64,000 nucleotides of DNA from Chiloscyllium plagiosum. Its lineage: Eukaryota. Of the stretch, positions 4,607 through 64,000 are shown in pieces. The translations under genes and the position numbers were made by a program. Under the pieces are notes generated by a model. It was not told the origin of the DNA and did no database searches. It was given only the letters and a program-made list of their open reading frames with translations. Position 1 is the first letter of the stretch; each line of letters starts with the position of its first letter. The stretch is from positions 14,601,429-14,665,428 of the forward strand of contig NC_057749.1 in the NCBI RefSeq assembly GCF_004010195.1, in the 5' to 3' direction.

Positions 4607-4698
4607 CTGTATTGGAGCACACAAGAAGAAGTGACCCTGTCTCCATGCTCAGAGTGGGCATTCCCGCATTTCAAAGATAAACATGGAGAGGTACTGAC

Positions 4699-4743
4699 CT
4701 GCTTTAACCAGACGTTTGTTGTCATGATCTGTTCACGTTCATT
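4699..4743 (-). CDS. CHRNB4: nAChR beta subunit, coding exon 3 (NEREQIMTTNVWLKQ)
   Basis: 45-nt exon with AG/GT boundaries; WLKQ is the beta4-type residue pattern (beta2 has WLTQ). Confidence 0.95.
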
Positions 4744-5519
4744 CTAAACAGAAAGAAGGTTGAGGGCGGGGAATTGGGGGACACAGAGTTGACATAAATG
4801 ATATTTGTAAATGTCATTGATTGGTTTCACACATGCCTATACCTCTCAAATGCCTGTATATGCATTTGTATACTGTCCCAGGTTTTTTAATTATACTTCT
4901 TAAAATTTGTCCAAGGGATGTGGGCTTTGCTGGCTGGGCCAGCGCTTTTTGCCCATCCCTAAATACCCTTGAGAAGGTGGTGGTGAGCTGCCTTCTTGAA
5001 CTATGTGGGGTAGGTAGACCCACAATGCTGTCAGGGAAGGAGTTTCAGGATTTAACCCAGCCACAGTGAAGGAACGGCAATATATTTCCAAATCTAGATG
5101 GCTTGGAGAGGAATTTGTAACCAACGGTGTTCTCATGTATCTGTTGGCATATTGTAACATGCACTGTTGCCATGTCAACGCTTGTATAAAATGACAACAC
5201 TAGTCTGCATTAGGCCATGTCACCCGAGAACGAATATCTCATGGCCCCTGTATAGAATACCAGTGTCACCGAGGACAGTAATGTGCAGACCCAGGAGTGA
5301 TCTATTGGCTGCTGCCTCTCGTTTGATTAAATTCTCAGCTGATACTCACACTCCGGGCTGCTACTGGAGGAGCACGTGTGTGAAGGATCACAGAATTGGC
5401 TGTGGGAATATAAACTAGCTTGGAGCAAACCTTTTGGAGAGGAAAGGAGTTCACTTGTGGAGGAAGAAACAAAGCTGATCCCTTGACACTGCAATAAATC
5501 ATCCTCACCCACCATTTGT

Positions 5520-9079: not shown

Positions 9080-9420
9080 GGGGAGGCAATGGCCAATGGG
9101 ATTATTGCTAGACTGTTAATCCAGACACCCAGGTAATGTTCTAGGGATCTGGGCTCGAATCCCACCATGGCAGGTGGTGGAATTTACATTCAATAAATAC
9201 CTGGAACTATGAGTCTGATGATGTCCATAAATCCATTGTCGATCGTCAGAAAACCCCATCTGGTTCCCACATGAAAAGAAACTGCCATCCTTACCTGGTC
9301 TGGCCTATACGTGACTCCAGGCCCACAGCAATTTGGTTGACTCTTAACGTAGGGGTGGGCAATAAATGTGGACCTAGATGCTTGCCTAGCAAGCAATGCC
9401 CTCAGCCCATGAATAAAATA
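9080..9420 (+). mobile_element. Head+tail SINE-like derivative of the tRNA-headed LINE
   Basis: 5' part matches 30162-30450; 3' part (GGGCAATAAATG...CCCATGAATAAA) matches the LINE 3' ends at ~60050 and ~63200. Confidence 0.75.
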
Positions 9421-13450: not shown

Positions 13451-16400
13451 TTGTACATTGTCCAATAGCTGATCTGCAACAATGGTTCTGTATATGCGTT
13501 CTGTATGAGTATTCATACTTATGGAGCTAGTTTATAAAATCGTAAAGATGAAAGGAGACCATTTGACCCATTGCTCAGATGCCAGCGCTTTGATTGTCCT
13601 TTGTCCCACTCCACCATCACCCCGCCGTTCTCCCATACAATATTTCCTCTTCAAAATCAGTGTCTATAAATCAGGCGAGCATCAACACATCTTTAGGACA
13701 TGACCCCATCCATATTTTAATAGCAGCTGGTTGAAAAAAATTATAATGTTTAAAATAAATCTGTTTTAAATTGATAAATTTCAAACCAACATGCGTTGAT
13801 TTTATTACTCAACAGGTGTGTCGGCAACTCACAATGGGGTAAATCAATTCTCCTGCCTGTACTGAAAAACCCAATTCACTAATATCATAAATGGTGATGC
13901 CTAGGTGTACAGCTTAGAATCAGCTTTAACATCTACTTCAGTTTTTTTGTTGAAGGCAGGCCTTGATCCTTCCAAGCCAAAACAGGGATCAGCCTCATGC
14001 TGTTATCTGGTCATCCAGTCAACTGTCTCTCCCTCATCCCGCAAAAAATAGCTATAGCAGCCTACATTTTTACATACACTTTGCAGTCTGGAACTATGGA
14101 TAGTGATGGTAAAGGTTATAGTGCATCTTCAATCATGTGGCTGACTGGGAATCTCTCCTACTCTTACTGCCTGATGATGGGGCATGGTGGAAGGAGTTAC
14201 AAGTTGATAACTAACCTGGTTGGCTGAATTGTGAATGCACCTTCTTTGGCTGTCAAGCCCTGGTGTGGGGCTTGCGCCAAGAACTTCTTGCTCAGAGGCA
14301 GAGCCACTACCAGTACAGCACAAGACTGCTTAACTTCTAATACAAATGGAAAATTTTGCAGATGTTCGATAAACAAAAATGCTGGCAAAACTGAGCAGGT
14401 CAGACTGAATCACAGAGTGAAAGATTAACTTTATTACCTGTTCCATGGCCACTGTATGACCTTCCGAGTATTTCCAGTGCTTTCCATTTATAAAATTCAT
14501 GCACTTCCAATTGGTCCTGCTAATAACAACATCACCTTCCAAGCACACCATACTCTTCCCGTATCTCCTGGTGAAGGCCTCAGACTCTGGATGAAATTGG
14601 TCGGTGTGGAAGAGATTTGTTATGGTAGCCAGATGCACTTCAATTTGTTTGCATTTTTATGTGCCTGAGTTGACTGAACTCGGTGTTTTATGGAACAAGA
14701 ATGGAATGAATGCAGTAAGGGTCTTTCCCATGGCTGGAGTGGGAACTTCTACCACCTACAAGGACATGGGAACACCACTTGGGAGATGTTCCAAGCCACA
14801 CATTTGGAATTATACCACAGTTCCTTCACTGTTGCTGAGTCAAAATCCTGGAGCTCCCTCCCTCACTGCTCCCAGGGTGAGTCTACACCCCAAAGACTAC
14901 AGTGGTTCAAGAAAGCAGCTCGCCACTTCTGCAGGGAATTTAGGTATGGGCAATAAATGCTGGCAAAGCCAGTAATGCCCACATCCCATGAATGAAATGT
15001 GAATAGGGAATGAAAGAGGACAAAGGGCAGGAAATAGGACATGAGGAATGTCAGATGAACCATGATTCTGTTGAATGGCAGAGCAGGCCTGAATGGCTGA
15101 ATGGTCTGCTCCTGTTACTATTTCTTAAGAGGTTTCTTAAGTTGACATGAATATATATATTATTGGCCAAAAGTAACGGAATACCTGAGAACACAGAAGC
15201 AGGATGAATTCATGTATGCCTTGAACCCGTTTCACTATTCAGTGAAATCGTGTCTGATATGCAAATTAGAAACATTGATGATAGGAGCAGAAGTAGGTCA
15301 CTGGACCCCTTGAACCTGATCTGCCATTCAAAATGATATGGCTGATCATTGAGTTCACATCCTCCCCCCTCCCCCCACCCCCCCCACCCCCTCCCAATAA
15401 TCTCTTGATCCCATTAGCCACAAGCCTTTACACATCTCATAATGTCTTTGCTGCAGCCTAACTCTACATACCTGCCTTTGCTCAGATCCTTTAGTAACTT
15501 TGACTAATAAAAATCCATCCACCTCCATTTTAAAGTTAACAATTCATGTGGTATCAATTGCTATTTGTGAAAGCAAGAGTCTTCTACCAACCTTCGTGTG
15601 ACAAAGTATTGATTAATTTTCCTCCTGAAAGATCCGACTCATTTTTGAATGTGTCTCCTAATCCTCCCCAACTCACAGAAATAGTTTCTCCCAGTCCAGC
15701 ATATATGTTTAACTTAATATCTTGAAAACTTGGTCAAATCAATCCTCAACCGTGCACTTAAATAATAACCATACTCTCCCCACATTTCCCGGTGAAGGTC
15801 TTAGAATTTGGATGAAATTGGTCAGTGTGGAAGAAATTTATTATGATAGCCAGCATGCCTTGAAATCATAACTGCCCTTCATTTCATTTATATTTTTGTG
15901 TGTTTGAGGTTGAATGAACAAGGTGTTTTATGGAACAAGAATGGGACAGGTGGAGAAAGGGTGTTGCCCCTGGCCAGACTGGGAAGGGGACTCTCAAACC
16001 CAGGAATTGTTTCAAAATAAGGGGCAAGACATTAAGGACTGAGATGAGGTGGAATTCCTTCACTGAGAGAGTGGTAGAATCTTTTGAATTCTGTACCAAA
16101 GGGGGCTGTGGGATCTCAGTTATTGAGAAAGTTCAAGATAGAAATTGATAGATTTTTAGATGCATTGAGAAATATGGGGACAGTTTTGATGTAGCTTTGA
16201 GATAGATTAACAGCTATGATTTAGAATGATGAAGCTAGTTTGAGGGTTTGAATGGACTACTCCTGCTCCTACGTTCCTTAAATTTGTTAGTTGATAATTC
16301 AAGGTTGAAATCTGTGTCAATTCTCTTTGCGTGGTGACTTTCTCAAAAATCTCCAATAAATTCCACTTTCTGATTTTCATAAAGTTGACCATCCTCCAAG

Positions 16401-17744: not shown

Positions 17745-18075
17745 TATTAATTCATGAGATGAGGGCACCGCTGGCTAAGCAGCATTTATTCCCCATCTCT
17801 AATTGCCCAAGGATCAGTTAAGACTCAGTCACATTGCTGTGGATCGGGAGTCACTTGTATACCAGAACAGGTAAGGATGAGAGTTTCCTTCCCTAAAGGA
17901 CATTAGTGAACCAGATGGGTTTTTCTGAAAATCAACAATGGGCTTGTTGTCAATTCCAGATTTTTTTAAATGACTTCAAAATCCCCCATCTGCCAGGACA
18001 GGATTTGAACCTGTGTCTCAGAATGTTATCTGGGTCTCTGGAATAACAATCCAGTGATAATGCCACTAGGTCTCC
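17745..18075 (-). mobile_element. Head+tail SINE-like derivative of the tRNA-headed LINE
   Basis: Reverse complement matches 9080-9420 and 30162-30450. Confidence 0.7.
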
Positions 18076-25004: not shown

Positions 25005-26590
25005 CAGAGTCATAGAGATGTACAACATGGAAACAGACCCTTCAGTCCAACTTGTCCATGCTGACCAGAAATTCCACCTGCCAGCACCTGGCCCATATCC
25101 CTCTCAACCCTTCCTATTCATATACCCATCCAGATGCCTTTTAAACGTTGCAATTGTACCAGCCTCCACCACATCCTCTGGCAGCTCATTCCACATACGC
25201 ACCACCCTCTGCATGAACAGGTTGCCCCTTAGATCTCTTTTATATTCTCTCCTCTCACCCTAAACCTATGCCTCTAGTTCTGGACTCCCCAACCCCAGGA
25301 AAAGACTTTGTCTATTTACCCTATCCATTCCCCTCATGATTTTATAAATCCCTGTAAGGTCACCCCTCAGCCTCCAATGCTCCAGGGAAAACAGCTGTAG
25401 CCCATTTAACCTTTCCCCATAGCTCAAATCCTCCAACCATGGCAACATCCTTATAAATCTTTTCTGAACCCTTTCAAGTTTCACAACATCCTTCCAACAG
25501 GAAGGAGACCAGAATTGCCCTGTACAGCCACAACACAACCTCCCAACTCCTGTACTCAATACTCTGACCAATAAAGGAAAGCATACCAAACGCCTTCTTC
25601 ACTATCCTGTCTACCTGCGACTCCACTTTCAAGGAGCTATGAACCTGCACTCCAAGATCTCTTTGTTCAGCAACACTCCCTAGGACTTTACCATTAAGTG
25701 TATAAGTTCTGCTAAGATTTGCTTTCCCAAAATGCAGCACTTCACATTTATCTAAATTAAATTCCGTCTGCTTAGCCCATTGGCTCATCTGGTCCAGATC
25801 CCGTTGTAATCTGAGATAACCTTCTTCGCTGTCCACTACACCTCCAATTTTGGTGTCATCTGCAAACTTACTAACTATACCTCTTATGCTCACATCTAAA
25901 TCTTTTATATAAATGATGAAAACTAGTGGACCCAGCACATATTCTTGTGGCACTCCACTCGTCACAGGCCTTCAATTGAAAAACAACCCTCCACCACCAC
26001 CTTCTACCTTTGAGCCAGTTCTGTATCCAAATGACTAGTTCTCCTTGTATTCTGTGAGATCTAACCTTGCTAATCAGTCTCCCATGGGGAACCTTGACGA
26101 ACACCTTACTGAGGTCCGTATAGATCACGTCCACCGTTCCGCCCTCATCAAGCCTCTTTGTTACTTCTTCAAAAAACTCAATCAAGTTTGTGAGACATGA
26201 TTTCGCACATATAAAGCCATGTTGACTATCCCTAATCAGTCCTTGCCTTCCCAAATACATGTACATCTGTCCCTCAGGATTCCTTCCAACAACTTGCCCA
26301 TCACCGACGTCAGGCTCACTGGTCTATAATTCCCTGGCTTGTCCCTACCACCTTCCTTGAATAGTGGCACCAGGTTAGCCAACCTCCAGTCTTCTGGCAT
26401 CTCACCTGTGACTATCAATGATACAGGTATCTCAGCAAGCGGACCAGAAATCATTTCCTTAAATCCCCACAGACTTCTGATCGGGTCCTGGGGATTTATC
26501 CATTTCTATGCATTTCAAGACATCCAGCACTTCCTCCTCTGTAACACGGACATTTTTCAAGATGTCTATTTCCCTACATTCTATATCACA
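25005..26590 (-). mobile_element. CR1/HER1 LINE, 5'-truncated
   Basis: RT motifs PGNYRPVSLTS, SQHGF, GVPQ, KFADDTK, LERVQKRF and RLRGDL; frameshifted. Confidence 0.92.
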
Positions 26591-26899: not shown

Positions 26900-27215
26900 A
26901 TTTTTTATTCACAGACTGACAATATCACTGGTTAGGCCAGCATTTATTGTCCAGAGGGCAGTTAAGAGCCAACCATATTCTGTGGGTCTGGAGTCACATG
27001 TAGGCCAGACAAGAATGGCAGTTTCCTTCCCAAAGGGACCAAGTGGATTTTTTCCCAACAATTGACAATAGATTCATTGTCAATTTTTAATTCCAGATAT
27101 TTATTGGATTCTAACTCCACCATCTGCTGTGGCAGGATTTGAACCAGTGTCCACAGAACATTACTTAGTCTGCGGATTAAGAGTCTAGTGGTAATACCAG
27201 TAGGCTATTGCTTCA
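26900..27215 (-). mobile_element. Head+tail SINE-like derivative of the tRNA-headed LINE
   Basis: Reverse complement matches 9080-9420. Confidence 0.7.
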
Positions 27216-30161: not shown

Positions 30162-32596
30162 GGGGAGGTGATAGCCTAGTGGTATTAACACTCGACTATT
30201 AATCCAGAAACCCAGAATAATACTCTGGGGACCTGGGTTCGAATCCCCACCACTGTAGATGGTGAAATTTGAATTCAATTCAGAAAAAATCTGGAATTAA
30301 GAGTCAACTGATGACCATGAAACCATTGTCAATTGTCGGAAAAATGCATCTGGTTTACTAATGTCCTTTAGAGAAGGAAATCTGCCATCCTTACCTGGTC
30401 TGGATGGCTCCAGAGCCACAGCAATGTGGTTGACTCGCAACTGCTCTCTGAAATGGCCTAGCAAGCCACTCAACTTGTATCATTCACTTGAAAGTCACAA
30501 CAAAGAAACGTAACCAAATGGACCACCTGGCATCGACCTTGGAACTAGAAAAGACAATGGCAAAAACACAAACAGCCCTGCTGACCATGCAGAGTCCTCC
30601 TTACCAACATCAGGGGGCTAGTGCTGAAATTGGGAGAGCTGTCTTACAGATTAGTAAAGCAACAGCCTGACATAGTCATTCTTATGGAATCATACCTTAC
30701 AGATAACACCCCAGACCACAACCATTACCATCCCTGGATATGTCCTGTCCCACCAGCAGGACAGACCCAGCAGAGGTGGCGGCACAGTGGTATACAGTCA
30801 GGAGGGAGTTGCCCTGGGAGTCCTTGACACAGTCTGGACTCTATGAAGCCTCATAGTTTCAGGTTAAACATGGACAAGGAAACCTCTTGCTGGTTATCAT
30901 GTACCATCCTCCCTTGGCTGACGAATCAGTACTCCTCCATGTTGAACAACACTCGGAGGAAGCATTGAGGGTGGCAAGGGTACAAAATGGTTCTGGGTGG
31001 GGGATTTCAGTATCCACCAACAAGCGTGGCTCAGCAGCAGTGATACTGGTTGAACTGGTTGGGTCCTAAAGGATATAACTGCTAGACTGGGTCTGTGACA
31101 GGTGTTGAGGGAACCTACAAGAGGAAAAAACATACTTGACTTCATCCTTACTAATCTGCTGGCTGCAGAAGCATCTGTCCATGACAGTTTAGGTAAAAGT
31201 GACCATCGCACTGTCCTTGTGGAGACAAAGTCCCACCTTCACATTGAGAATAACCTCCATTGTGTTGTGTGGCATGATCACCATGCTAAATGGTGATCAA
31301 ACATGGCCTGGCATATCCCCACTCAACCATTACCATCCATCCAGGGGATCAACCCTGGTTCAACAGAGAGTGCAGGAGGGCATGCCAGGTACAGTATCAG
31401 GCATACCTGAAGATGATGTGTCAACCTGGTGAAGCTACCGAACAGGACCACATGCCTGCTAAATGGCATAAACAGCAAGTGACAGACAGAGCTAAGTGAT
31501 CCCACAACCAATGGATCAGATCTAAGCTCTGCAGTCTTCCCACATCCAGTCATAAATGGTGGTGGACAACGAAACAACTCGCTGGAGGAGAAGGCTGCAC
31601 AAATAGCCCCATCCTCAATGATGGAGGAGCCCAACACATCAGTGAAGAGATAAGGCTGATGCTTTCACAACAATCTTCAGTCAGAAGTACCGAGTAGATG
31701 ATTCATCTCGGGCTCCTCCAGTAGTCCCCAGCATCACAGATACCAGTCTCCACCCAATTCAATTCCCTCCACGTGATATCAAGAAATGGCTAGAGGCACT
31801 GGATACTGCAAAGGCAATGGGCCCTGTTAACATCCAGCAATAGTACTGAAGACGTATGCTCCAGAGCATGCCGCTCCCCCAGACAAGCTTTTCCAGTGCA
31901 GTTACAACACTGGCATCTACTGACAATGGGGAAAACTGTCCTGTACACAAAAAACAGGACAAATCCAACCCGGCCAGTTACCGCCCAATCAGTCTACTCT
32001 CCATCATCAGTAAACTGATGGAAGGGGCCATCAAGCAGCACCTGCTCAGCACCAACCTGCTCGGTGACGCCCAGTTTGGGTCGCCAGGGTCACTCAGCTC
32101 CAGACCTCATTCCAGCCTTGGTTCAAATGTGGACAAAAGAGCTGAATTCCAGAGGTGAAGTGAGAATGACAGCCCTTGTCATCAAGGCCGCATTTGACAG
32201 AGTATCAAGGAGCCCTGGCAAAACTGGAATCAGTGGGTATCAGGGGGCAAACACGCCGCCGGATAGAATCATACCTGGCACAAAGGAAGATGGTTGTCGT
32301 TGTGGAGGGTCAGTCATCTCAGCTCCAGGACATCTCTGCAGGAGTCCTTCAGGGTAGTGTTCTAGGCCCAACAATCTTCAGCTGCTTTATCAATGACCTT
32401 CCCTCTGTCATAAGGTCAGAAGTGGGGATGTTTGCTGATTATTGCACAGCGTTAAGCACCATTCGCGACTCCTCAGATACTGAAGCAGTCTGTGCTCAAA
32501 CGCAACAAGATCTGGACAATATCCAGGCTTGGGCTGACAAGTGGCAAGCAACATTCACGCCACACAAATGCCAGACAATGGCCATCACCAATAAGA
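30162..32596 (+). mobile_element. CR1-group LINE with tRNA-like 5' head, APE endonuclease and RT, 3'-interrupted
   Basis: A-box TAGCCTAGTGG (30172), B-box GGTTCGAATCC (30236). Then VLLTNIRGLVLKLGEL...PDIVILMES, EPTRGKNILDFIL...SDH, SYRPISLLSIISKLME, GVLQGSVLGP and MFADY. Many disruptions. Confidence 0.85.
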
Positions 32597-33952
32597 GACA
32601 GGTCAAGAGGGCAGTGCCGAATTGGCTCTCGAGGTTGGGTTGGAAGGTTGATGAACAGTTCATCAACTTCACTAACACCTTCTCCTGACCTCAAGTTCAC
32701 TTGAACCATGTCAGATACCTCCGTCCCCTTCCTGGACCTCTCCGTCTTCATCTCTGGCCATCGACTCAACATGGACCTCTACTTCAAACCCACTGACTGC
32801 CACAGATGCGTGGATTCCACCTCCTCCCACCGCCCTCTACTTTAAATCTTTACACCCAATTCACCCGCCTCCCCCTGTATTTGCTCCCAGAAGGGGCGAT
32901 TCCACTCCAGGACATCCCAGATTGCTTCCTATTTCAAGGACTGCAATTTTCCCTCCCACGTGATCAACAATGCCCTCCATCGCATCTCCTCCACTTCCCG
33001 CACCTCTGCCTCGAACACCACCCCTCCAACTGCAACAAAGATAGAACCCCCGGTCCTTACCTTCCACCCCACTAATCTCCAGATACATCACATTGTCATC
33101 TGCCATTTCCATCATCTACAATCAGACCCCACCACCAAAGATATATTTCCTTCCCCACCCCTACTGGCATTCCACAGAGACCAATCCCTCTGCCACTCCC
33201 TCATTAGGTCCACAGTCCCCACCAATCCACCCTCCACTCCTGGCACCTTCCTTTCCTTCTGCACGCAGTATAAAACCTGGCCCACACCTCCCCCCTCACC
33301 TCCATCCAAGGCCCTAAAGGATAATTTCAAATCCAGCAGAGATTTTCCTGCACATCCTCCCACCTCATTTACAGCATCCATTGCTCTTGATGTGGTCTCC
33401 TTTACATTGGGAAGACTGAGCACCAACTCGTGGTGGAGTTCAGGGAACATCTCTGGTCCACATGCACCAAACAACCTCACCGTCCTGTGACCAACCACTT
33501 CAACTCCTGCTCCCAATCCCCCAACAACATGCAAATCCTTGGCCTCTTCCACCACCAAATCAAAGCCATCTGATGCCTGGAGGAAGAACGTCTCATCTTC
33601 CACCTCAGGACCCTACAACCACACATCATCAACATCGACTTCACCAGTTTCCATATCTCCCCTGCCCCCACCTCATCCCAGATCCAACCTTCCAACTCAG
33701 CACTACCCTCTTGACCTGTCCTACCTGTCCACCTTCCTTCCCACCTATCCACTCCACCCTCCACACTGACCGATGAAAAACACCTCCTACCTGCATCCAC
33801 CTATCACCACCCCCACCCCCACCCCCACCCCTATTTATCTATCATCCACTCCTTCCTCCTCCACATTCCTGATGATGGGCTTATGTCCGAAACATCGGCT
33901 CTCCTGCTCCTTGGATGCTGCCTGACCCGCAGTGCTTTTTCCAGTGCCACAC
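32597..33952 (+). mobile_element. Penelope-like element (Neptune-like) with inverted 5' segment
   Basis: Homologous to 6766-7934; 32597-32650 is an inverted copy of ~33683-33720; decayed hammerhead motif at 33868. Confidence 0.85.
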
Positions 33953-34594: not shown

Positions 34595-35485
34595 GACATG
34601 GTTAGTACGTTTGTGGACAACACCCAAAACTGGTGGCATTGTAGACAGTGAAGAAGGTTTTCTAAGATTACAAAAGGATCTTGATCAAATGGATCAGTGG
34701 GCTGCAAAGTGGCAGATGGAGTTCAGTCTGGATAAGTGCAAGATATTGCATTTTGGTACAACAAATGAAGGTAGAGTTTATACAACTAATGATAATGCCT
34801 TGGGTAATGTTGCAGAACAGAAGGATGTGGGGGTGCAGGTACATAATTCTTTGAAGTTTGTGTCACATATGGACAGGGTGATTAAAAAGGCATTTGGCAC
34901 GCTTGCCTTTCATTGCTCAGTCCTTGGAGTGTAGGAATTGAGATGCCATGTTGAGGTTGTACAGGACATTGGCTTCTTCGGGAATACTGAGTCCAGTTCT
35001 GATCACCCAGTTATAGGATGGATATTATCAAGCAGGAGAGGGTTCAGAAGAGATTTACCAGGATGTTGGTGGGTTTGGAAGCTTTGAGTTATAAAGAAAG
35101 GCTGGATAGGCTGGGGCTTTTTCACTGGAATGTAGGAGGTTGAGGGGTGAACTTATAGAGGTTTAAAAAATAATGAGGGGCATAGATAGGGTTAATGGTA
35201 GTTGTCTCTTGCCTAGGTTGGGGGATTTCAGGTGTAAGAGGCACATTGTTAAGGTGAGAGGAGAGAGATTTACACAGAGGGTGGTTCACATGTGGAATGA
35301 ACTTTGAGAGAAAGTGGTGGATGCAGGTAGAATCACAATGTTTAAAAGACATTTGGATAAGTACGTGAAAAGGAAAGGTTTGAAAGAATATGGGCTAAGA
35401 GCAGACAGATGTTTGAGACTATGTTCAGCATGGACTGATTGGACCGAAGGGTCTGCTTCTGTTCTGTATGACTCTGACTCTATGA
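34595..35485 (+). mobile_element. CR1/HER1 LINE 3' fragment
   Basis: RLQKDLDQMDQWAAKWQMEF and TMFKRHLDKY peptides with the CR1 tail. Confidence 0.88.
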
Positions 35486-44725: not shown

Positions 44726-45227
44726 ATCGGATAGGACTGAGATAAGGAAAAATATCTTCATTCGGAAGCATGCAAATCTTTAGAATTCTTCGGTTGTGTG
44801 ACTGGATGCTCAGTCATCAAATCCTTTCAACATTGGGATCAATAGACTTTGAGTTCTGAGGGAATGGAGACAAAGTGGAGTTGTTATAAAGAGTGATCTT
44901 ATTAAATAATGGAGGAAACTTGAGGGACCAATCAGGCTTATTCCTCATGTTTCTGAAGCAGTCCTTTTTGTTCAATGGCCATCCTCAGATACATATGTTG
45001 TTCAGTTCACATTTCCAACAACACTCAAGAAGCTTGACATCATCCAGGACAAAGCAGCCTGCTTGATTGGCACCATATGCACAAGCACTCACTCACTCAA
45101 CTACCGACACTCAGTAGCAGCAGTGTGTACTATCTACAAGATGCACTTCAGAAATTCACCAAATATCCTTGGACAGCACCTTCCAATACCATGGGCACTT
45201 CCACCTAGAAAGACAAGGGCAGCAGAC

Positions 45228-47195
45228 AGAGTCCTACAGCATAGAGACAGGCCCTTTGGCCCAAACTGGTCCATGCTGACCAAAATGTCTATCCACACTA
45301 ACCCCATTTCCCCTCACTTGGCCCATATCTTTCTAATCCTTTCCTATCCATGTATTTATCCAAATGCCTTTTAAATATTGTTAATGTGCCCGCCTCAACC
45401 ACTTCCACTGGCAGCTTATTCCATATGTGTACCTCCCTCTGTATATAAAAGTTGCCTCTCAGGTTCCCTTTTATTCTTTCCCCTCTAACCTTAAACTGAT
45501 ACCCACTAGTCTTCAATTTCCCAACCTTGAGAAAAAGATTGAGTGTATTCATCCTATCCATGCCTCTCATGACCTTATACACCTTGAAAAGGTCTCCTCT
45601 CAGCCTCCTACGCTCTAAAGAAAACAGTCCTAGCTTGTCCAACCTCTCCCTATAACTCAGACCCTTGAGTCCTGGAACATCTTGTAACTTTCTTTTGCAC
45701 TCCTTCCAGTTTAGTAACATCCTTCCAGTAACAAGGTGACCAAAACTGAACACAATACTCCAAGTGCAGCCTCACAAACGACCTGTACAACTGCACCATA
45801 ACTTCCCAACTTCTATACTCAATGCCCTGACTAATGAAGGCCAGTGTGCCAAAAGCCTTCTTCACTGCCCTGTCTACCTGTGACTCCACTTTCAGAGAAC
45901 CGTGAACCTGAACTCCAAGGTCCCTCTGTTCCACTACATTCTTAAGGCCTTACTATGCAACATGAAACTCCTACCTTGATTTGACTTTCCAAAATGTATA
46001 ACCTCATACTTACTTATATTAAACTCCATTTGCCATTTCTGAGCCCAAATCCACAGCTGATCAAGATTCTGTTGTAATTTCTGATAACCTTCCTCACTGT
46101 CCGCGATACCGCCTATTTTAGTGTCAACAGCAAACTTACAAATTATGCCTTGTACATCCTCATCCAAATCATTGATAATCGATAACAAACAGGAATGGGC
46201 CCAGCACCGACCCCTGAGGCACTCCACTAGTCATGGGCCTCCAGTCCGACAAACATCCTTCTACTATTACCCTCCGCTTCTACCATCAAGTCAATTTTGC
46301 ATCCAATTTGCCAGCTTGCCCTGGATTCCATGTGATCTAACCTTCCAGAGCAGCCTAACATGTGGAACCTTATCAAAGGCCTTACTGAAATCCATATGGA
46401 CCACATCTACTGTCCTGCCCTCGTCAACCTTCCTGGTCACTTCATCAAATTTGTGAGGTATGATCTCCCACTCACAAAGCCATGCTGACTACTCCTAATC
46501 AAACATTGTCTTTCCAAATGCATGTATATCTTATCCCTCAGAATCTTCTCAAGTAACTTACTTCTCAAGATGTTAGTCTTATTGGTCTATAGTTCCCAGG
46601 CTTTTCTTTGCAGCCCTTCTTGAGTAAGGGCACAACATTCGCTACGCTCCAGTCTTCCGGGAACTCACCCATGGCTAACAATGATGCAAAAATATCAGCC
46701 AGGATCCCTGCAATTTCTTCTCTAGCCACTTGCACTGTTCTTGGATATATCTGGTCTAGGACCAGGAGATTGATCCACCTTCATACACTCTAATACATCC
46801 AATACCTCCTCTACTGTGATATGGACTGTCCTGAAGGTATCACCACTAACTTCCCCAAGTTCCCAGGTCTTCATGTCTTTCTCCATGATAAACACAGAGG
46901 AGAAATATCCATTGAGAATCTCGTCCATCTCTTGCGGTTCTACACATACATGTCTATTTTGGTCTTGAGGGGCCCTATTCTTTCTCTGGTTATTCCTTTT
47001 TCTTTACTATAATTAAAGTCCCTCTTTGAATTTCTCAGCCAAGGCTATCTTGCACCCCCTTTTCACCCTCTTGATTTCCTTCCTCAGTAAACTCCTGTAT
47101 TCCCTGTGTAGCTCTAGGGATTCCCTTGATCCCAGCTGCCTGTATCTGAGCCACTCCTCCTTTCTCTGGTCAAAGCCTCAATATCCCTTTGTCAT
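45228..47195 (-). mobile_element. CR1/HER1 LINE inserted in the 3' part of a tRNA-headed-family LINE
   Basis: RT peptides (KFAVDTKIGG, LEYCVQFWSP, RLRGDL); host halves at 45015-45227 and 47196-47440 join into a sequence matching 59640-60100. Confidence 0.9.
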
Positions 47196-48257
47196 CAGAT
47201 ACATTGGAAGTTCCCTTCCAAGCCACGCCCCATCCTGACTTGGAAATATATCGCCATTCCTTCACTGTCACTGGGTTAAAATCCTGGAATTCCTTCCCCA
47301 GTGACATTGCGGCTTATCCCACAGCAGGTGGACGGTAGCGGTTCAAGAAGGCAGCTCACCACCACCTTCTCAAGGGCAGCTAGGAACTGGCATTAAGTAC
47401 TGGCACAGCCAGCAATGCCCACATTCCACAAATGAATTTTTAAAACATTTATGGGAGATTGGCCAAATGAGACTAGATTTATTTAGGTTATCTGGTCGGC
47501 ATGGACAAGTAGGACCAAAGAGTCTGTTTCTGTGCTATATGACATCTCTAAGACTCTATGATTCCAAGTCAATACTCCCTATGCTCCAGTCCACTTTAAC
47601 ATTTGTGGATCCTTTAAAGAGTTTTACTACATTGAAAATTTATTGAGTCCTGAGGGTCTCTCTGTGTCTGACAGCAGATTTGCTGGTTAATGAGTTAGCT
47701 AATGTTATTGTTTCTAATATTAATTCATCATTTATTTCTTACTCAGCATCAAAGCAGCACAGATTCGGGCCTGTGGGGGATTTCAATTAAGCGTTAAAGA
47801 AACGACTTCAGTGGCCGATATGACTATATTTATGCATTTCATTGTTTCCTGTGAAAGTTTATAGAATGTGAAAGTAATATCACACAGAGCGAGGCCTTTT
47901 GACCCATCGAGTTCTGCTGTTTTTAACAAAGGACAATCCAGTTAACCCACACCCTGGCTCTTTTCCCAAAATCCACATTTCTTTCCCCTTGAAGTTTTGC
48001 ATCTTAATTGTGGCATGATACCCATTGCACACAGAAACATAAAAACAGAAGGAGGCCATTCAGCCCCATTCAGGCACGTTCCAATGAGGTCATGGCTAAT
48101 CTGCAGCCCATGGACCCATCTTCTTACCATTGAATTATTTCTCAATTTAGAAATTGTACATTTAGAGTATTGATTAAATAAATGCTCCTATTCAATAAGT
48201 TGTGTTTGGAGAGTGTAGCTTCAAAAGGTAAATTACAACTGGGTACAAAAGAAGCCC

Positions 48258-57599: not shown

Positions 57600-57925
57600 C
57601 TTTATTCATTGGTGGAATGTCAGCATCACTGGCTAGACCAGCATTTATTGCCCAAAGGGCAGTTAAGAGTCAACCACATTGCTGTGGGTCTGAAGTCACA
57701 TGCAGGCCAAACCAGGTAAAGACAGCAGTTTCCTTCTCTAAAGAACATTAGTAAGCCAGACAGTTTTTTCCAACAATTGACAGCAGTTTCATGATCATCA
57801 TTAGACTGTTTTAAAAATTTATTTCAAATGCCACCATGGCAGGATTTGACCCCAGGTCCCCAGAACATTGCCAGGGTCTCTGGATTAAAAATCTAGCAAT
57901 AATGCTACTAAAACATTGCCTCCAT
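57600..57925 (-). mobile_element. Head+tail SINE-like derivative of the tRNA-headed LINE
   Basis: Reverse complement matches 9080-9420. Confidence 0.7.
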
Positions 57926-58691: not shown

Positions 58692-59574
58692 TTGTAGAGA
58701 GACAACTGAAGGGGAGTGTTAACCTGAGAGTCACCACACTAGAGGCAAGGGCTGAGGTTAAGAAGATGACTTCAGCTGGAGCAGGATTTGAACCCATTCT
58801 GCGTTGGCAACCAGCTGTCCAGACAACTGAGCTAACCTATCTGGCCTTTTTTATACAATTGAACAACTTGATAACCCATTTTACACAGCAGTGAACAAGT
58901 AACCAGACTGCTGATTAATTGGACCTTTGGTGAATTTCTGTACTGCATATTGCTGGTGGTACACACCGCTGTTACTGATTAGATAGATTAGATTAGAGGT
59001 GATGGCGGCAAATGTTTCTTTGCTAAAGTCCAATAGTGAAACAGCTGGGATTTTGTAACAATCACCATGGTTACATGGTTACTATTGGCCAGCTTTTCAT
59101 TCCAGACTTATAAAATGAAAGGAATTCAAATTTCACCATCTGTTGAGATTCCAGCCCATCTCCCCAGAGTATTAGCATTGGTGCTATGGAAATGCAAATC
59201 TCCTCTCATAAGTTAACATTAATACTTTAGTTAACAAAATCACACAATTTCAACTTCACTTGGATTCTCTTCTAGACAAGTCGACACAGTTGCACACTCA
59301 CACGCACATTGCTCGCTTACACACACACATACACACACAATCTCACATACACACAAAACATCATACTATTTTAGTGACAATATCACACTCCTATAAATGA
59401 CTTGGATGGGTTTACACATGTATATTATATTATGTGTACCTATCCTCCACTGACTGCAGTTTGCTGGAGTTGTTACCCTGTTCCGATTAGGGCAAGTTGC
59501 TTTAGCCTCTGTTAAGAGTTCTGTCTCCTCTGGTTCAAAGAAGCTTTTTCAACTAGATGCGTAGACTAACATAA

Positions 59575-60110
59575 TTCACACCGTGCAAGTCAGGAGTGTG
59601 ATGGAATACTCCCTACTTGCCTGGATGTGTGTAGCTCCAACAACATTCAAGAAGCTTAACACCATCCAGGACAAAGCAGCCCACTTGATTGGCAGCACAT
59701 TAACAAACGTCCATTTCCTCCACCATCGACGTTCAGTAACAGCGGTGTGTACCACCTGCAATATGCAGTACAGAAATTCACCAAAGGTCCTCAGACAGCA
59801 CCTTCCAAATCATGACCACTTCCAACTAGAGGGACATAGGCAGCAGATACATGGGAACACCACCCCCTTCAAGTTTTCCTCCAAACCTCTCATCGTCCTG
59901 ACTTGGAAATACGAGACCATTCCTTCACTCTCACGGGGTTAAAATCTTGGAGTTCTCTTCCTAACAGGATTGTGGGTCAACCTACAGCACTTAAACTGCA
60001 GTGGTTCAAGAACGCAGCTCAACACCACCTTCTCTGAGGGCAACTAGGGGTGGGCAATAAATGCTGGCCCAGCCAGAGATGTCCACATCAGCTCCCCTGA
60101 TTGAATTAGA
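59575..60110 (+). mobile_element. 3' fragment of the tRNA-headed LINE family
   Basis: QVRSVMEYSLLAWM...KKLNTIQDKAAHLIG...LHHRRSVTAVC followed by the GGGCAATAAATGCTGGCC tail. Confidence 0.8.
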
Positions 60111-61205: not shown

Positions 61206-61889
61206 GTTTTTATTATAGTTGCCATTCTGACTGGAAATGTATCATTGTTCCTTCACTGTTGCTGGGCCAAAATCCTGGAATTCCTTCCCTAATGGTGTTG
61301 TGGGACCACCTACAGCATATGGACAAGAAGGCAGCTCACCATCACCTTCTTGAGGGCAACTAGGGATGGGCAATAAATTCTGGTCCAGTCACCAAAGCCC
61401 CCATCCTACAAATTTCCCACCACTGATCCCTTAGCACTTCATTACAATTTGAGAACCTAAAATTACCCATTTGCCCTTTCTGTTTCCTGTATCTGTGTTA
61501 ATATACAGTATAACCATGAAAATCAGTAGAATCTCAAGAATAGCCTTTCATCTGATCACATTAAATTGCTTTTGGAAATCCAAACATGCTACATCTACAG
61601 TTATCTTTCATCCTTCCTGATTGTTACTTTGTCAAAAAATATCAACAGATTTGCCAAAGATGTCATGTTGACTCTACCTGATTATATGAAGAAATTCAAC
61701 AGGCCATGAGTGACTACACATTGTAAGTACTCCATTGGCTGTTTAAGTACTTGAGGATGCCATAAAAGGTGCTACGGAAATACATGTTTTTCTCTCATGA
61801 GTTAATATTGACCTATTGGTTAGCAAAATCATGCAACTTCAACCTCACTTGGATCAATTTATAGTCAAAGACGGTTGCCCCATCCAAGT

Positions 61890-62130
61890 CCACACAGTTA
61901 CACTCTCACAAACACAAACACACTTATGTACATACACACTGACAAACACATACACACAATCACAGACATACACAGCCCCAATCTCACACACACACCCAAT
62001 CGCAGACACACACATGCACTCTTTCTCTCACACACAGACACACTCTCCCAATATCTCTCTCTCACTCACGCACACACACACCCACACACGCGCACACCTG
62101 CACACGCACACGCACAGGCACATACACAGG
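61890..62130. repeat. CA-rich low-complexity tract
   Basis: Degenerate (CA)n; similar tracts at 59295-59355 and 63270-63440; (TG)n at 28426-28447 and 53711-53733. Confidence 0.85.
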
Positions 62131-62149
62131 TACAAATCTGTAGATCAAG

Positions 62150-63265
62150 GTCGCCTGGTGATATTATTGCCAGACTATTAATCCAAAAACTCAGGTCATG
62201 TTCTAGGGACCTGGGTTTGAATCCTACCACTGCTGATGGTGGAATTTGAATTCAATTAAAACAAATCTGGAATTAAGAATCTGCTGATGACCATGAAACC
62301 ATCGTCAATTGTTGGAAAAACCCATCTCGTTCACGAATGCCCTTCAGCAAAGGAAATCTGCTATTCTTACCTGGTCTGACCTACATATGACTCCAGACAC
62401 ACAGCAATGTGGTTGACTCTCAATCACCCTCTACAATGGTCTAGCAAGCCACTCAGTTGTACCAATCACTACAAAGTCTCAAAGAAATGAAATTGGATCG
62501 ATCATCTGACATCTACCTAGGCACTGGAAAAGACAACGGCAGAAACAGCCCTGTCACCCCTGCAAAATTCTCCTTATGAATATCTGGGGGCTAGTGCTAA
62601 AATTGGGAGAGCTGTCTCACAGATCAATCAAGCAACAGCCTGACATAGTCATACCTTACAGACGACTCACCACATTAAACACAGCGGCTACAAGATCAGG
62701 TCAGAGGCTGCAGTAAGTAACTCACCTCCTGACACCCCAAGGACTGTCCACCATTCACAAAGCACAAGCCAAGGATATGATGGAATTCTGCCCATTTGCC
62801 TGAATGCAGGCCCAACAACACTCAAGAAGCTGACACCATCCAGGACAAAGCTTCCTGCTTGATTGGCATTGCATCCACAAGCATCCACTCCCTCCATCAC
62901 CGATGCTCAGTAGCAGCAGTGTATACCATCTACAAGATGCACTGCAGAAATTCACCAAAGATCCTCAGCGAGCACCTTTCAACTCCACGACCACAAGGAC
63001 AAGGGCAGCAGATACATGGGAACACCACCATCTTCAAGTTCCCCTCCAAGCCGCTCGCCGTCCTGACTACCCGTTCCTTCACTGTCACTGGGTCAAAATC
63101 CTGGAATTCCGTCCCTAAGGGCATTGTGGGTCAACCAACAGCAGGTAGACCATAGTGGTTCAAGGAGACAGCTCACCCCCACCTTCTCAAGGGGCAACTA
63201 GGGGACTGGCATTAAATATTGGCCCAACCAGTGATGCCACATCCGACAAATGAGTAAACAAAAAA
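62150..63265 (+). mobile_element. Internally deleted copy of the tRNA-headed LINE
   Basis: Head, 5' UTR and endonuclease start match 30165-30700; near 62662 the sequence jumps to the RT C-terminus and tail matching 59575-60110. Confidence 0.85.
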
Positions 63266-63929
63266 AATGCACACATACATGTGCAAGCACTCATAATTTT
63301 GCAAATGCAAACACACAACCGTGCATAAAGAATCACTTTACACGCGCCTACTAAGCATGCTTACATACACTATTAATCATAACCACACACAATCATGCAC
63401 AAACACACACATACATGTACACATATAAATACACTATGATACACTTGCAGCTGGATGTTTATACAATCAGTGAACCATTGAGTCTCTTTGCCTGTGACAT
63501 TGGTCCCACAACCCGCTCTTTCCCCATAGCCCTGAAATTATTCTCTTTGAAAGTATGTATTCAATTCCCATTTGAAATTGAACCTTGCCCCTCCAGGTTA
63601 ACCATCTGATTTATTTTACCTTAACAAGATCATCGAGAGGCTCCTCACGTTCCTCTCCCTCACACAAATATGTTTATTAGAAGCTGTGCCTTTCTCAGTC
63701 CATCCCATTGGACCAAAACAAAATCTCTCCAAATGTTGAATCTGTTTATTATTAATAATAATACAGGCCAGAAGATTACAAGTTCTAACCCCAGCCTGTG
63801 CTGAATTAATTGATTTTTATTCTGGTTTGAGACAGGAATCACTCCTGCTGTGCTGGGCAGGGAATTCATATTAGCTACATTTATTAACTTTTTCAATAAA
63901 ATGTAAACACTGCAAATGCTGGAGTTTTG

Positions 63930-64000
63930 GGTGACACGGTGGCTCAGTGGTTAGCACTGCTGCCTCACAGCACAGGGATCCAGGTTCAATTCCACGCTCA
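63930..64000 (+). mobile_element. HE1-like SINE head (runs off the window)
   Basis: GGTGGCTCAGTGGTTAGCACTGCTGCCTCACAG...GGTTCAATTCC. Confidence 0.8.

Follow-up and report, generated by a model that had tools for sequence, protein, structure and literature searches.

Can a retrotransposon that encodes its own proteins be transcribed by RNA polymerase III (Pol III)? By the rule found in textbooks and in recent specialist papers, as far as the portions available to us go, long interspersed nuclear elements (LINEs) are RNA polymerase II (Pol II) units and Pol III serves only short parasites. A 64-kb stretch of the genome of the shark Chiloscyllium plagiosum (hereafter the window, 64,000 nucleotides) raises this question at positions 30162-32596, where a module resembling a tRNA gene leads into an endonuclease (EN) and a reverse transcriptase (RT). 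The original prediction for this locus described a LINE with a tRNA-like head, no open reading frame 1 (ORF1) and a sense strand depleted of TTTT, and proposed that Pol III transcribes it or once did. The structural half of that reading has held: the head is the 5' end of the LINE, ORF1 is absent, and the sense strand is poor in T runs, unlike that of CR1 LINEs of the same genome. The transcriptional half we retain tentatively.

A tRNA-derived head at the 5' end of the LINE

The interval 30162..32596 (+) is a 3'-truncated copy of a Zenon-type LINE, covering nt 1 to ~2,530 of an element of 3,279 nt; it carries several frameshifts, and its homology with other copies stops at 32600. It opens with a tRNA-derived head (30162..30259, +), a Pol III module of the type found in short interspersed nuclear elements (SINEs). 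Its parts, all on the + strand, are those that had been described from the letters alone: an exact A box, TAGCCTAGTGG (30172-30182), matching 11/11 positions of the A-box motif TRGCNNAGTGG; an anticodon-like arm, CTCGA-CTATTAA-TCCAG (30191-30207); an extra hairpin in the variable-arm position, CCCAGA-ATAATAC-TCTGGG (30211-30229, from the consensus fold); and an exact B box, GGTTCGAATCC (30236-30246), 64 nt from the start of the A box. Behind the head follow, on the same strand, a 5' untranslated region (UTR) segment that sequence comparison finds in common with a ~345-bp SINE partner (30260..30450), a LINE-only 5' UTR (30451..30578), the EN region, read via frameshifts (30579..31290), and the RT region (31900..32596). 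Pfam places RVT_1 at 32263-32596 (E 2.4e-10), while Exo_endo_phos is recognised weakly in the sister copy L063 (E 0.083, under the curated cut-off). The EN frame starts near 30579, ~420 nt from the element start, in agreement with the predicted spacing of ~430 bp, and is followed by RT, leaving no room for ORF1. Between 31293 and 31302 the window copy lacks ~90-100 nt that are present in nearly all other copies. A repeat at window 32600-33200, with a translation including ...FLDLSVFISGHRLNMDLYFKPTD..., interrupts the LINE copy; the same repeat also adjoins unrelated copies in two other loci (L011 and L026).

In the element as a whole, the head comprises the first ~95 nt and begins GGG, 10 nt ahead of the A box. 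The B-box pattern has a single occurrence in the window, against ~0.3 per strand expected from composition, and the A-box pattern has six on both strands, other SINE heads among them. Both boxes are also exact, in order and 64 nt apart in the family consensus, and among 38 decayed copies the A box is exact in 11 and the B box in 10. ARAGORN called no tRNA in the window, nor at the head of 52 related loci, and Rfam returned no tRNA match for the head at E<=10; on the family consensus ARAGORN reported tRNA-Asn(att), only with a relaxed threshold. Thus, the head derives from a tRNA but is not itself a foldable tRNA, as no cloverleaf with an acceptor stem forms. ARAGORN also reported a tRNA-Glu(ttc) in locus L064 at 4626-4706 (+), within the span of a Zenon copy and on the opposite strand, which is probably an inserted tRNA-derived repeat.

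We searched the 3.56-Gb assembly with a 599-nt query covering the head-to-EN junction and scored 40 of 11,495 first-look candidates; the junction was spanned in 39/39 other scored places, at 82-87% identity. Within the window it recurs, as had been noticed at 62150-62660, with 62153-62652 matching 30174-30679 over 513 nt at 78.9% identity. Since a sample drawn with this query is biased towards heads, the search was repeated with the endonuclease part alone, which is blind to the head. Among the 29 other loci so obtained, 18 came within 15 nt of the head start, 3 began inside the head and 8 were truncated deeper (window-equivalent 30259-30556), and alternative upstream sequence was present in 0/29. 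Copies of full length thus begin at the head and none continues upstream of it. Moreover, 40 of the 51 places that cover EN start at consensus nt 1-14, and their 200-nt upstream flanks show similarity in only 4 of 1,275 pairs. A SINE inserted by chance beside a 5'-truncated LINE, an explanation for which one could cite the SINE copies with the same head that are common in the window, is refuted by the junction in all 39 scored places and in the consensus sequences of five other species; we regard its probability as negligible.

The head is moreover inherited with the LINE. Position 45, inside the head, is A in 33/34 LINE copies and in 0/24 SINE copies, 22 of which have G, and further LINE-specific alleles lie at positions 140, 142, 156, 256 and 279. 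Since these fixed differences between LINE and SINE fall both inside and behind the head, the head has come down with the LINE body and was not drawn from the pool of SINE RNAs represented in our sample; it is an integral 5' module of the LINE. These alleles bear on a further explanation, in which the LINE RNA starts near nt 123 and RT switches, at each insertion, to a small polyadenylated head RNA, so that every copy is a new chimera. Such switching would suit the hypervariable AAT(T)n(A)n site that joins head and body (consensus nt ~112-122; 30277..30295, +, in the window copy, where it reads caattcagaaaaaatctgg), which has the look of a Pol III RNA 3' terminus to which an A-tail was added: across 45 LINE copies this CAAT(T)n(A)n tract has between 1 and 8 T. 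It would also suit the lack of clustering of the T-run state on a FastTree of 42 copies (11 changes vs 13.0 when shuffled, P 0.14). The best association of the internal T-run allele with any column was P 0.0018 among 147 tests, not significant after correction, and the unclustered state suggests that T runs may arise at or after insertion. Besides the LINE-specific allele at position 45, recurrent chimeras are opposed by the SINE, which has the same head-body junction with a stable AATAAAT in most of 23 copies, and by the start points, since 0/51 places start near nt 115-130 (the nearest starts being 107 and then 147). We consider them very unlikely indeed.

The start point itself is informative. 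The first letters of the copies are GG(G)GAGG; this start precedes the A box by 10 nt and the predicted tRNA +1 by 3-6 nt, and such 5' ends show where the RNA starts, not which polymerase made it. One account of so precise an end makes the head a processing signal: the LINE would be co-transcribed from upstream host promoters and RNase P would cut the tRNA-like fold, in a counterpart of the hepatitis delta virus (HDV)-like ribozymes at the 5' ends of R2, RTE and L1Tc, the last documented in the portion of PMC3185411 available to us. It would accord with the lack of a recognisable LINE promoter and of an AUG in the main frame, and with the extra hairpin, where dogfish has CCTGGA/TCCAGA and other sharks have CCCAGA/TCTGGG; by eye, two pairs there have changed on both sides (C-G to T-A and A-T to G-C) and still pair, compensatory changes that hint at selection on RNA structure. 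However, the acceptor stem cannot form and neither ARAGORN nor Rfam sees a tRNA, the 3-6 nt with which copies begin are the very part that RNase P would trim, and the avoidance of T runs described below would have no explanation. Processing by RNase P is therefore, to our mind, very unlikely. Starts at GG(G) fit a primary Pol III transcript rather than an RNase P product, and as the 5' ends fall at the expected start site of a type-2 promoter and a few bases upstream of the expected RNase P cut, we take the head to be an internal promoter.

An elasmobranch Zenon with one coding frame

The family consensus was built by merging loci into 66 genomic places, aligning them and applying majority rule, with 14 to 53 copies per position. 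It is 3,279 nt long (an element of ~3.28 kb), and the copies examined have all decayed from it by ~9%. A single EN+RT frame runs open over nt 293-2230 and extends past two frame breaks, one near nt 2209, in a column where about half of the copies have a base and half a gap, and one near nt 2700, where no column is evenly split and which looks like an indel from consensus building. No ORF1 exists in the consensus, where upstream ORFs reach at most 37 codons, as the prediction had expected of the full-length element. Upstream of nt 1178 the EN-RT frame contains no ATG. At nt 348 lies a conserved ATG, mutated in the window copy, which opens a 37-codon ORF in the LINE-only 5' UTR that overlaps the start of EN and from which a -1 shift would be needed to enter the EN frame; by eye, we found no slippery -1 frameshift site conserved between shark and stingray. 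Since the main frame lacks an AUG, its translation would be unconventional whichever polymerase makes the RNA. In five long copies that were fetched, the element ends ~3.2 kb downstream with ...CCCACAAATGAAT(T)n and an A-rich run of ~4-11 A, interrupted in some, and 20 3' ends read ...ATGAAT(T)n and close with a brief A-rich stretch, the poly-A or A-run tail expected of a Zenon. Searches of PDB sequences with natural EN and RT pieces gave no match, and a search for homologous proteins returned nothing at E<=1e-10.

RTE elements are ~3.2 kb long, with one ORF and a short overlapping upstream ORF, and the size, single frame and overlapping 37-codon ORF at first suggested this clade, an assignment dropped after the match to published Zenon sequences. 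Those sequences are in Table S2 of PMC13343379 (GBE 2026), which, in the portions available to us, holds seven elasmobranch Zenon consensus sequences from five species of sharks and stingray (CarCar_Zenon-1, RhiTyp_Zenon-1, ScyCan_Zenon-1, HypSab_Zenon-1 and SquAca_Zenon-1 to -3), each of 2.9-3.3 kb. Two short head motifs matched Zenon rows, and we compared the first 400 nt of each row by eye: 7/7 elasmobranch rows open with the head and have the exact A box, the 5' UTR and the conserved ATG in alignment with our consensus, whereas the hagfish and coelacanth Zenon rows have unrelated 5' sequence and no head. A perfect anticodon-like arm, CTGGA-CTAGTAA-TCCAG, is found in rows of other species, and the phase of the 37-codon ORF relative to the EN frame is identical in the stingray row. 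Judged by its sequence, the element is an elasmobranch Zenon LINE of the CR1 group, a placement that follows from the position of the published elements in the tree of that paper together with the match of the 5' sequences. L2, considered because of a resemblance of the tail, was dropped because galeomorph sharks are reported there to be without L2 and the elements are placed in Zenon.

According to the sections of PMC13343379 at hand, Zenon elements universally lack ORF1 and carry a poly-A tail that is unique among CR1-group elements; the absence of ORF1 is thus normal for a Zenon and not unusual here. The same sections describe the clade as poorly characterised and elasmobranch Zenons as absent so far from repeat databases. 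Table S3 gives EN coverage of 92-99% for the HypSab, SquAca, CarCar and RhiTyp Zenons. Its intact-ORF2 cell for SquAca_Zenon-1 holds 675852, next to 0/2313, 1/1419 and 3/612 in other rows; read as 675/852, it would possibly indicate a young dogfish family. The published elasmobranch consensus sequences have the same structure as the Chiloscyllium plagiosum element, and both the family and its lack of ORF1 were already known. The head and the avoidance of T runs are not discussed in the available text, and the words tRNA, promoter and polymerase III have 0 occurrences in the main text as available. Within the literature searched there was no description of a LINE with a tRNA head, of a Zenon with a tRNA or of the head in shark Zenons; what we did not find described there is the tRNA origin of the head, its inheritance with the LINE, the one-step relation between LINE and SINE, and the avoidance of T runs.

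T runs in the sense strand

Exact counts agree with those first made by eye: TTTT occurs once in 30162-32596 (at 31889), not at all in 62150-63265, and three times in the CR1 sense strand at 34595-35485. We asked of the 3,279-nt consensus whether so few T runs exceed what its composition and coding content would give. It contains no run of T>=4, where 4.6 would be expected from mononucleotide shuffling (P of none 0.009), 2.3 from dinucleotide shuffling (P 0.09), 2.1 from synonymous-codon shuffling (P 0.08) and 2.0 from shuffling of codon order (P 0.10). Runs of T>=3 number six, as against 22.3 expected from mononucleotides (0/1,500 shuffles as low), 14.3 from dinucleotides (P 0.002), 13.9 from synonymous codons (0/3000 as low) and 14.4 from codon order (P 0.0003), while A, C and G runs match expectation. 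The scarcity is visible at codon junctions, where 0 xTT|Txx and 1 xxT|TTx are observed and ~6.4 and ~5.2 are expected by hand arithmetic, the former from 47 codons ending in TT and 121 of 883 starting with T. In a check that bypasses the consensus, a single ORF site has T>=4 in at least 12% of copies, and it reflects CpG decay of TTTCG to TTTTG.

Two CR1 families of the same genome served as controls, each with 12 copies plus the window copy and over the RT region; their consensus segments are open over 337 and 303 codons. Pooled, they hold 15.6 T3+ and 3.1 T4+ runs per kb, compared with 1.8 and 0 in the Zenon consensus; the CR1 segments agree with their own codon shuffles, and at the CR1 rate ~10 T4 runs would fall in 3,279 nt. 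Both families, which are mutually related and have thousands of first-look candidates, are represented at window 25500-26500 (-) and 45900-46800 (-). Fragments of other LINEs had 9 T4 runs in 3.0 kb, a sample too small to serve alone. In the elasmobranch Zenon rows of Table S2, again by eye and over the first 400 nt, TTTT is found in 0/7, whereas the hagfish and coelacanth rows have several (PMC13343379, as available). The supplement of that paper as a whole contains TTTT 2,750 times in 579,336 characters, names and other sheets included, which against ~1,003 rows of at most 400 nt is roughly 7 per kb. A second headed subfamily, sought for an independent test of T runs, could not be separated, as its candidate matches (el2-like, 82-85% identical) include a locus of the same family.

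Neither composition nor dinucleotides, codon usage or protein sequence thus fully account for the shortage of T runs in the sense strand, and CR1s of the same genome do not share it. The depletion of T runs stands: runs of T>=4 lie below the CR1 and mononucleotide expectations and the deficit of T>=3 is strong; T>=4 taken alone is suggestive, being not significant against codon shuffles.

The polymerase and the SINE partner

What, then, transcribes the LINE? From the anatomy of the head and the missing T runs we infer the following course. The A and B boxes would recruit TFIIIC and TFIIIB, and transcription would begin at element nt 1, 10 nt ahead of the A box; with the head as internal promoter, every full-length copy would be equipped with a promoter. 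The RNAs of the short derivatives, i.e. the ~345-bp SINE and an internally deleted form of 1.1 kb, would be Pol III products, and so, on balance, would the 3.3-kb LINE template, the making of which by Pol III is our proposed reason for a sense strand purged of T runs. That Pol III makes the full-length LINE RNA is the account we tentatively favour, at a little under an even chance. We hold a shade more loosely the fuller version, in which this RNA serves as the template, and perhaps as the mRNA, of an autonomous coding LINE, the arrangement having been kept since before sharks and rays split, with T runs purged, the AUG-less frame translated from uncapped RNA, and SINEs arising by internal deletion.

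Several observations weigh against a Pol III transcript of full length. No natural Pol III transcript of ~3.3 kb is known. Behind the head, at consensus nt ~112-122, a run of T4-T8 is present in 16/45 LINE copies and in 1/23 SINE copies (Fisher P 0.006), and as this is the position of a Pol III terminator, transcription of such copies would stop after ~115 nt. The depletion of T>=4, the measure stated in advance, is weak against dinucleotide and codon shuffles and counts as suggestive; the T>=3 test was picked post hoc as one of ~12 run tests, a correction it survives; and the T-run controls consist of two related CR1 families in the RT region. At its 3' end the element has an A-run, with hexamers resembling ATTAAA or AATAAA ahead of it. 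In the portions of the sources available to us, Kojima 2024 argues that the weak processivity of Pol III forces autonomous elements onto Pol II, and Zenons of other phyla are poly-A tailed and devoid of a Pol III promoter (PMC6740152, PMC13343379).

The same facts are what commend transcription of the full-length LINE by Pol II, with Pol III confined to the short derivatives. The head would then be a captured SINE module kept downstream of the start, or a tDNA-like, TFIIIC-bound aid to chromatin or to Pol II. Poly-A tails in Zenons of all phyla, and the lepidopteran Zenon and its derivative Persaeus without a Pol III promoter, agree with this in the parts of PMC6740152 and PMC13343379 available, as do an A-run that follows hexamers resembling polyadenylation signals, a T4-T8 tract distributed as if the constraint of a terminator acted on the SINE alone, and the T>=4 test, which on its own is not significant against codon-aware shuffles. 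Transcription by Pol II would leave the avoidance of T>=3 at codon junctions unexplained, however, all the more as the Pol II-type CR1s of the same genome are without it. The Pol II start would have to coincide, over many generations, with the Pol III position 10 nt before the A box, and there would be no reason for exact A boxes in 7/7 LINE consensus rows from sharks and a ray. We rank this account next, as a real possibility that also falls short of even.

RNA reads leave the two polymerases indistinguishable, since poly-A single-cell reads and contigs show neither starts nor ends. At 85% likeness, one poly-A single-cell RNA run yielded 524 reads, mostly from the part shared with the SINE and in both directions; a second run had none at that likeness, and two contig sets gave matches.

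Variation like that of the internal tract is seen at the 3' terminus, with AAT(T)0-6 ahead of the A-run and T>=4 in 5 of 20 LINE 3' ends. In the T+ SINEs that Borodulina and Kramerov are said to have described in 2008, and reportedly in mammalian SINEs only, a T run ends the Pol III transcript, which then receives a poly-A tail. The shark LINE shares AAT(T)n(A)n ends of this kind in part of its copies, the 5/20 with T>=4; its ends are mostly T1-2, and any role as terminator is putative.

The SINE partner, aligned from 20 further genomic copies and four window copies, is ~345 bp long and consists of the head with LINE nt ~1-290 joined to the final ~55 nt of that LINE. SINE copies are older than those of the LINE, with pairs 74-81% identical, and the partner fits the definition of a tRNA-derived SINE (SINE2), whereas the 3.28-kb coding LINE does not. 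In the window the partner is present at 9083..9405 (+), with this very layout, and by alignment at 57605..57922 (-), at 17760..18070 (-) and at 26952..27214 (-), where the tail was not found. The copy at 62150..63267 (+) joins the head, 5' UTR and first ~47 EN codons to the last ~600 nt and an A-run; as it jumps from the first EN codons to the 3' end, it is an internally deleted form of 1.1 kb. A 5'-truncated fragment of the LINE 3' end was aligned at 59574..60089 (+), and similar fragments lie at 45015-45226, 47208-47435, 61247-61413, 14820-14995 and 4905-5077, the last given as minus strand. A long CA-rich simple repeat (window 61900-62140) is directly upstream of the deleted copy. The head of a further, different tRNA-type SINE (ggtggctcagtggttagcactgctgcctcacagc...) begins at window 63930-64000; the A-box pattern matches at 63940, and the head is similar to widespread heads of shark and fish SINEs.

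Because the autonomous LINE itself bears the head, a simple internal deletion would give the SINE. Kojima reportedly found 5' contributions of LINEs to SINEs only from RTE and Vingi. In his model of SINE bodies derived from LINE 5' UTRs (PMC5786205, portions available), the layout is the same bipartite-plus-head arrangement as in the ~345-bp partner; here, unlike in that model, the autonomous LINE carries the head, and the LINE group is Zenon, the examples there being RTE and Vingi. The same source, as available, says of RTE-1_DAn and relatives that these LINEs likewise hold tRNA-like sequence; they belong to the RTE clade, the position and role of that sequence are unstated in the available text, and RTE-1_DAn is named in no other paper within the literature searched. 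Persaeus, the deleted form of a lepidopteran Zenon, is likewise ~350 bp long, combines the 5' UTR and ORF start with the 3' end, reaches high copy number and comes from a poly-A Zenon of ~3.3 kb, but it and its Zenon have, in the portion available, neither tRNA homology nor a Pol III promoter, unlike the shark Zenon (PMC6740152). A built-in Pol III promoter derived from a small RNA is also known from the long terminal repeat (LTR) retrotransposons of the TRIMp3 type (Cassandra, Helenus, Ajax; PMC10886601, as available); unlike the shark Zenon, these are short and non-coding, and their autonomous partners are argued to need Pol II.

A conserved promoter of SINE type at the exact 5' end of a LINE, together with avoidance of T runs over 3.3 kb, makes the Pol II rule for LINEs directly testable. 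If Pol II reads the shark LINE, the conserved A and B boxes and the avoidance of T runs would need another explanation. If Pol III reads it, the known in vivo length range of this polymerase would be extended, an uncapped RNA would be able to supply retrotransposon protein, and there would be a one-step route from LINE to SINE, with Zenon as the third LINE group whose 5' UTR forms SINE bodies.

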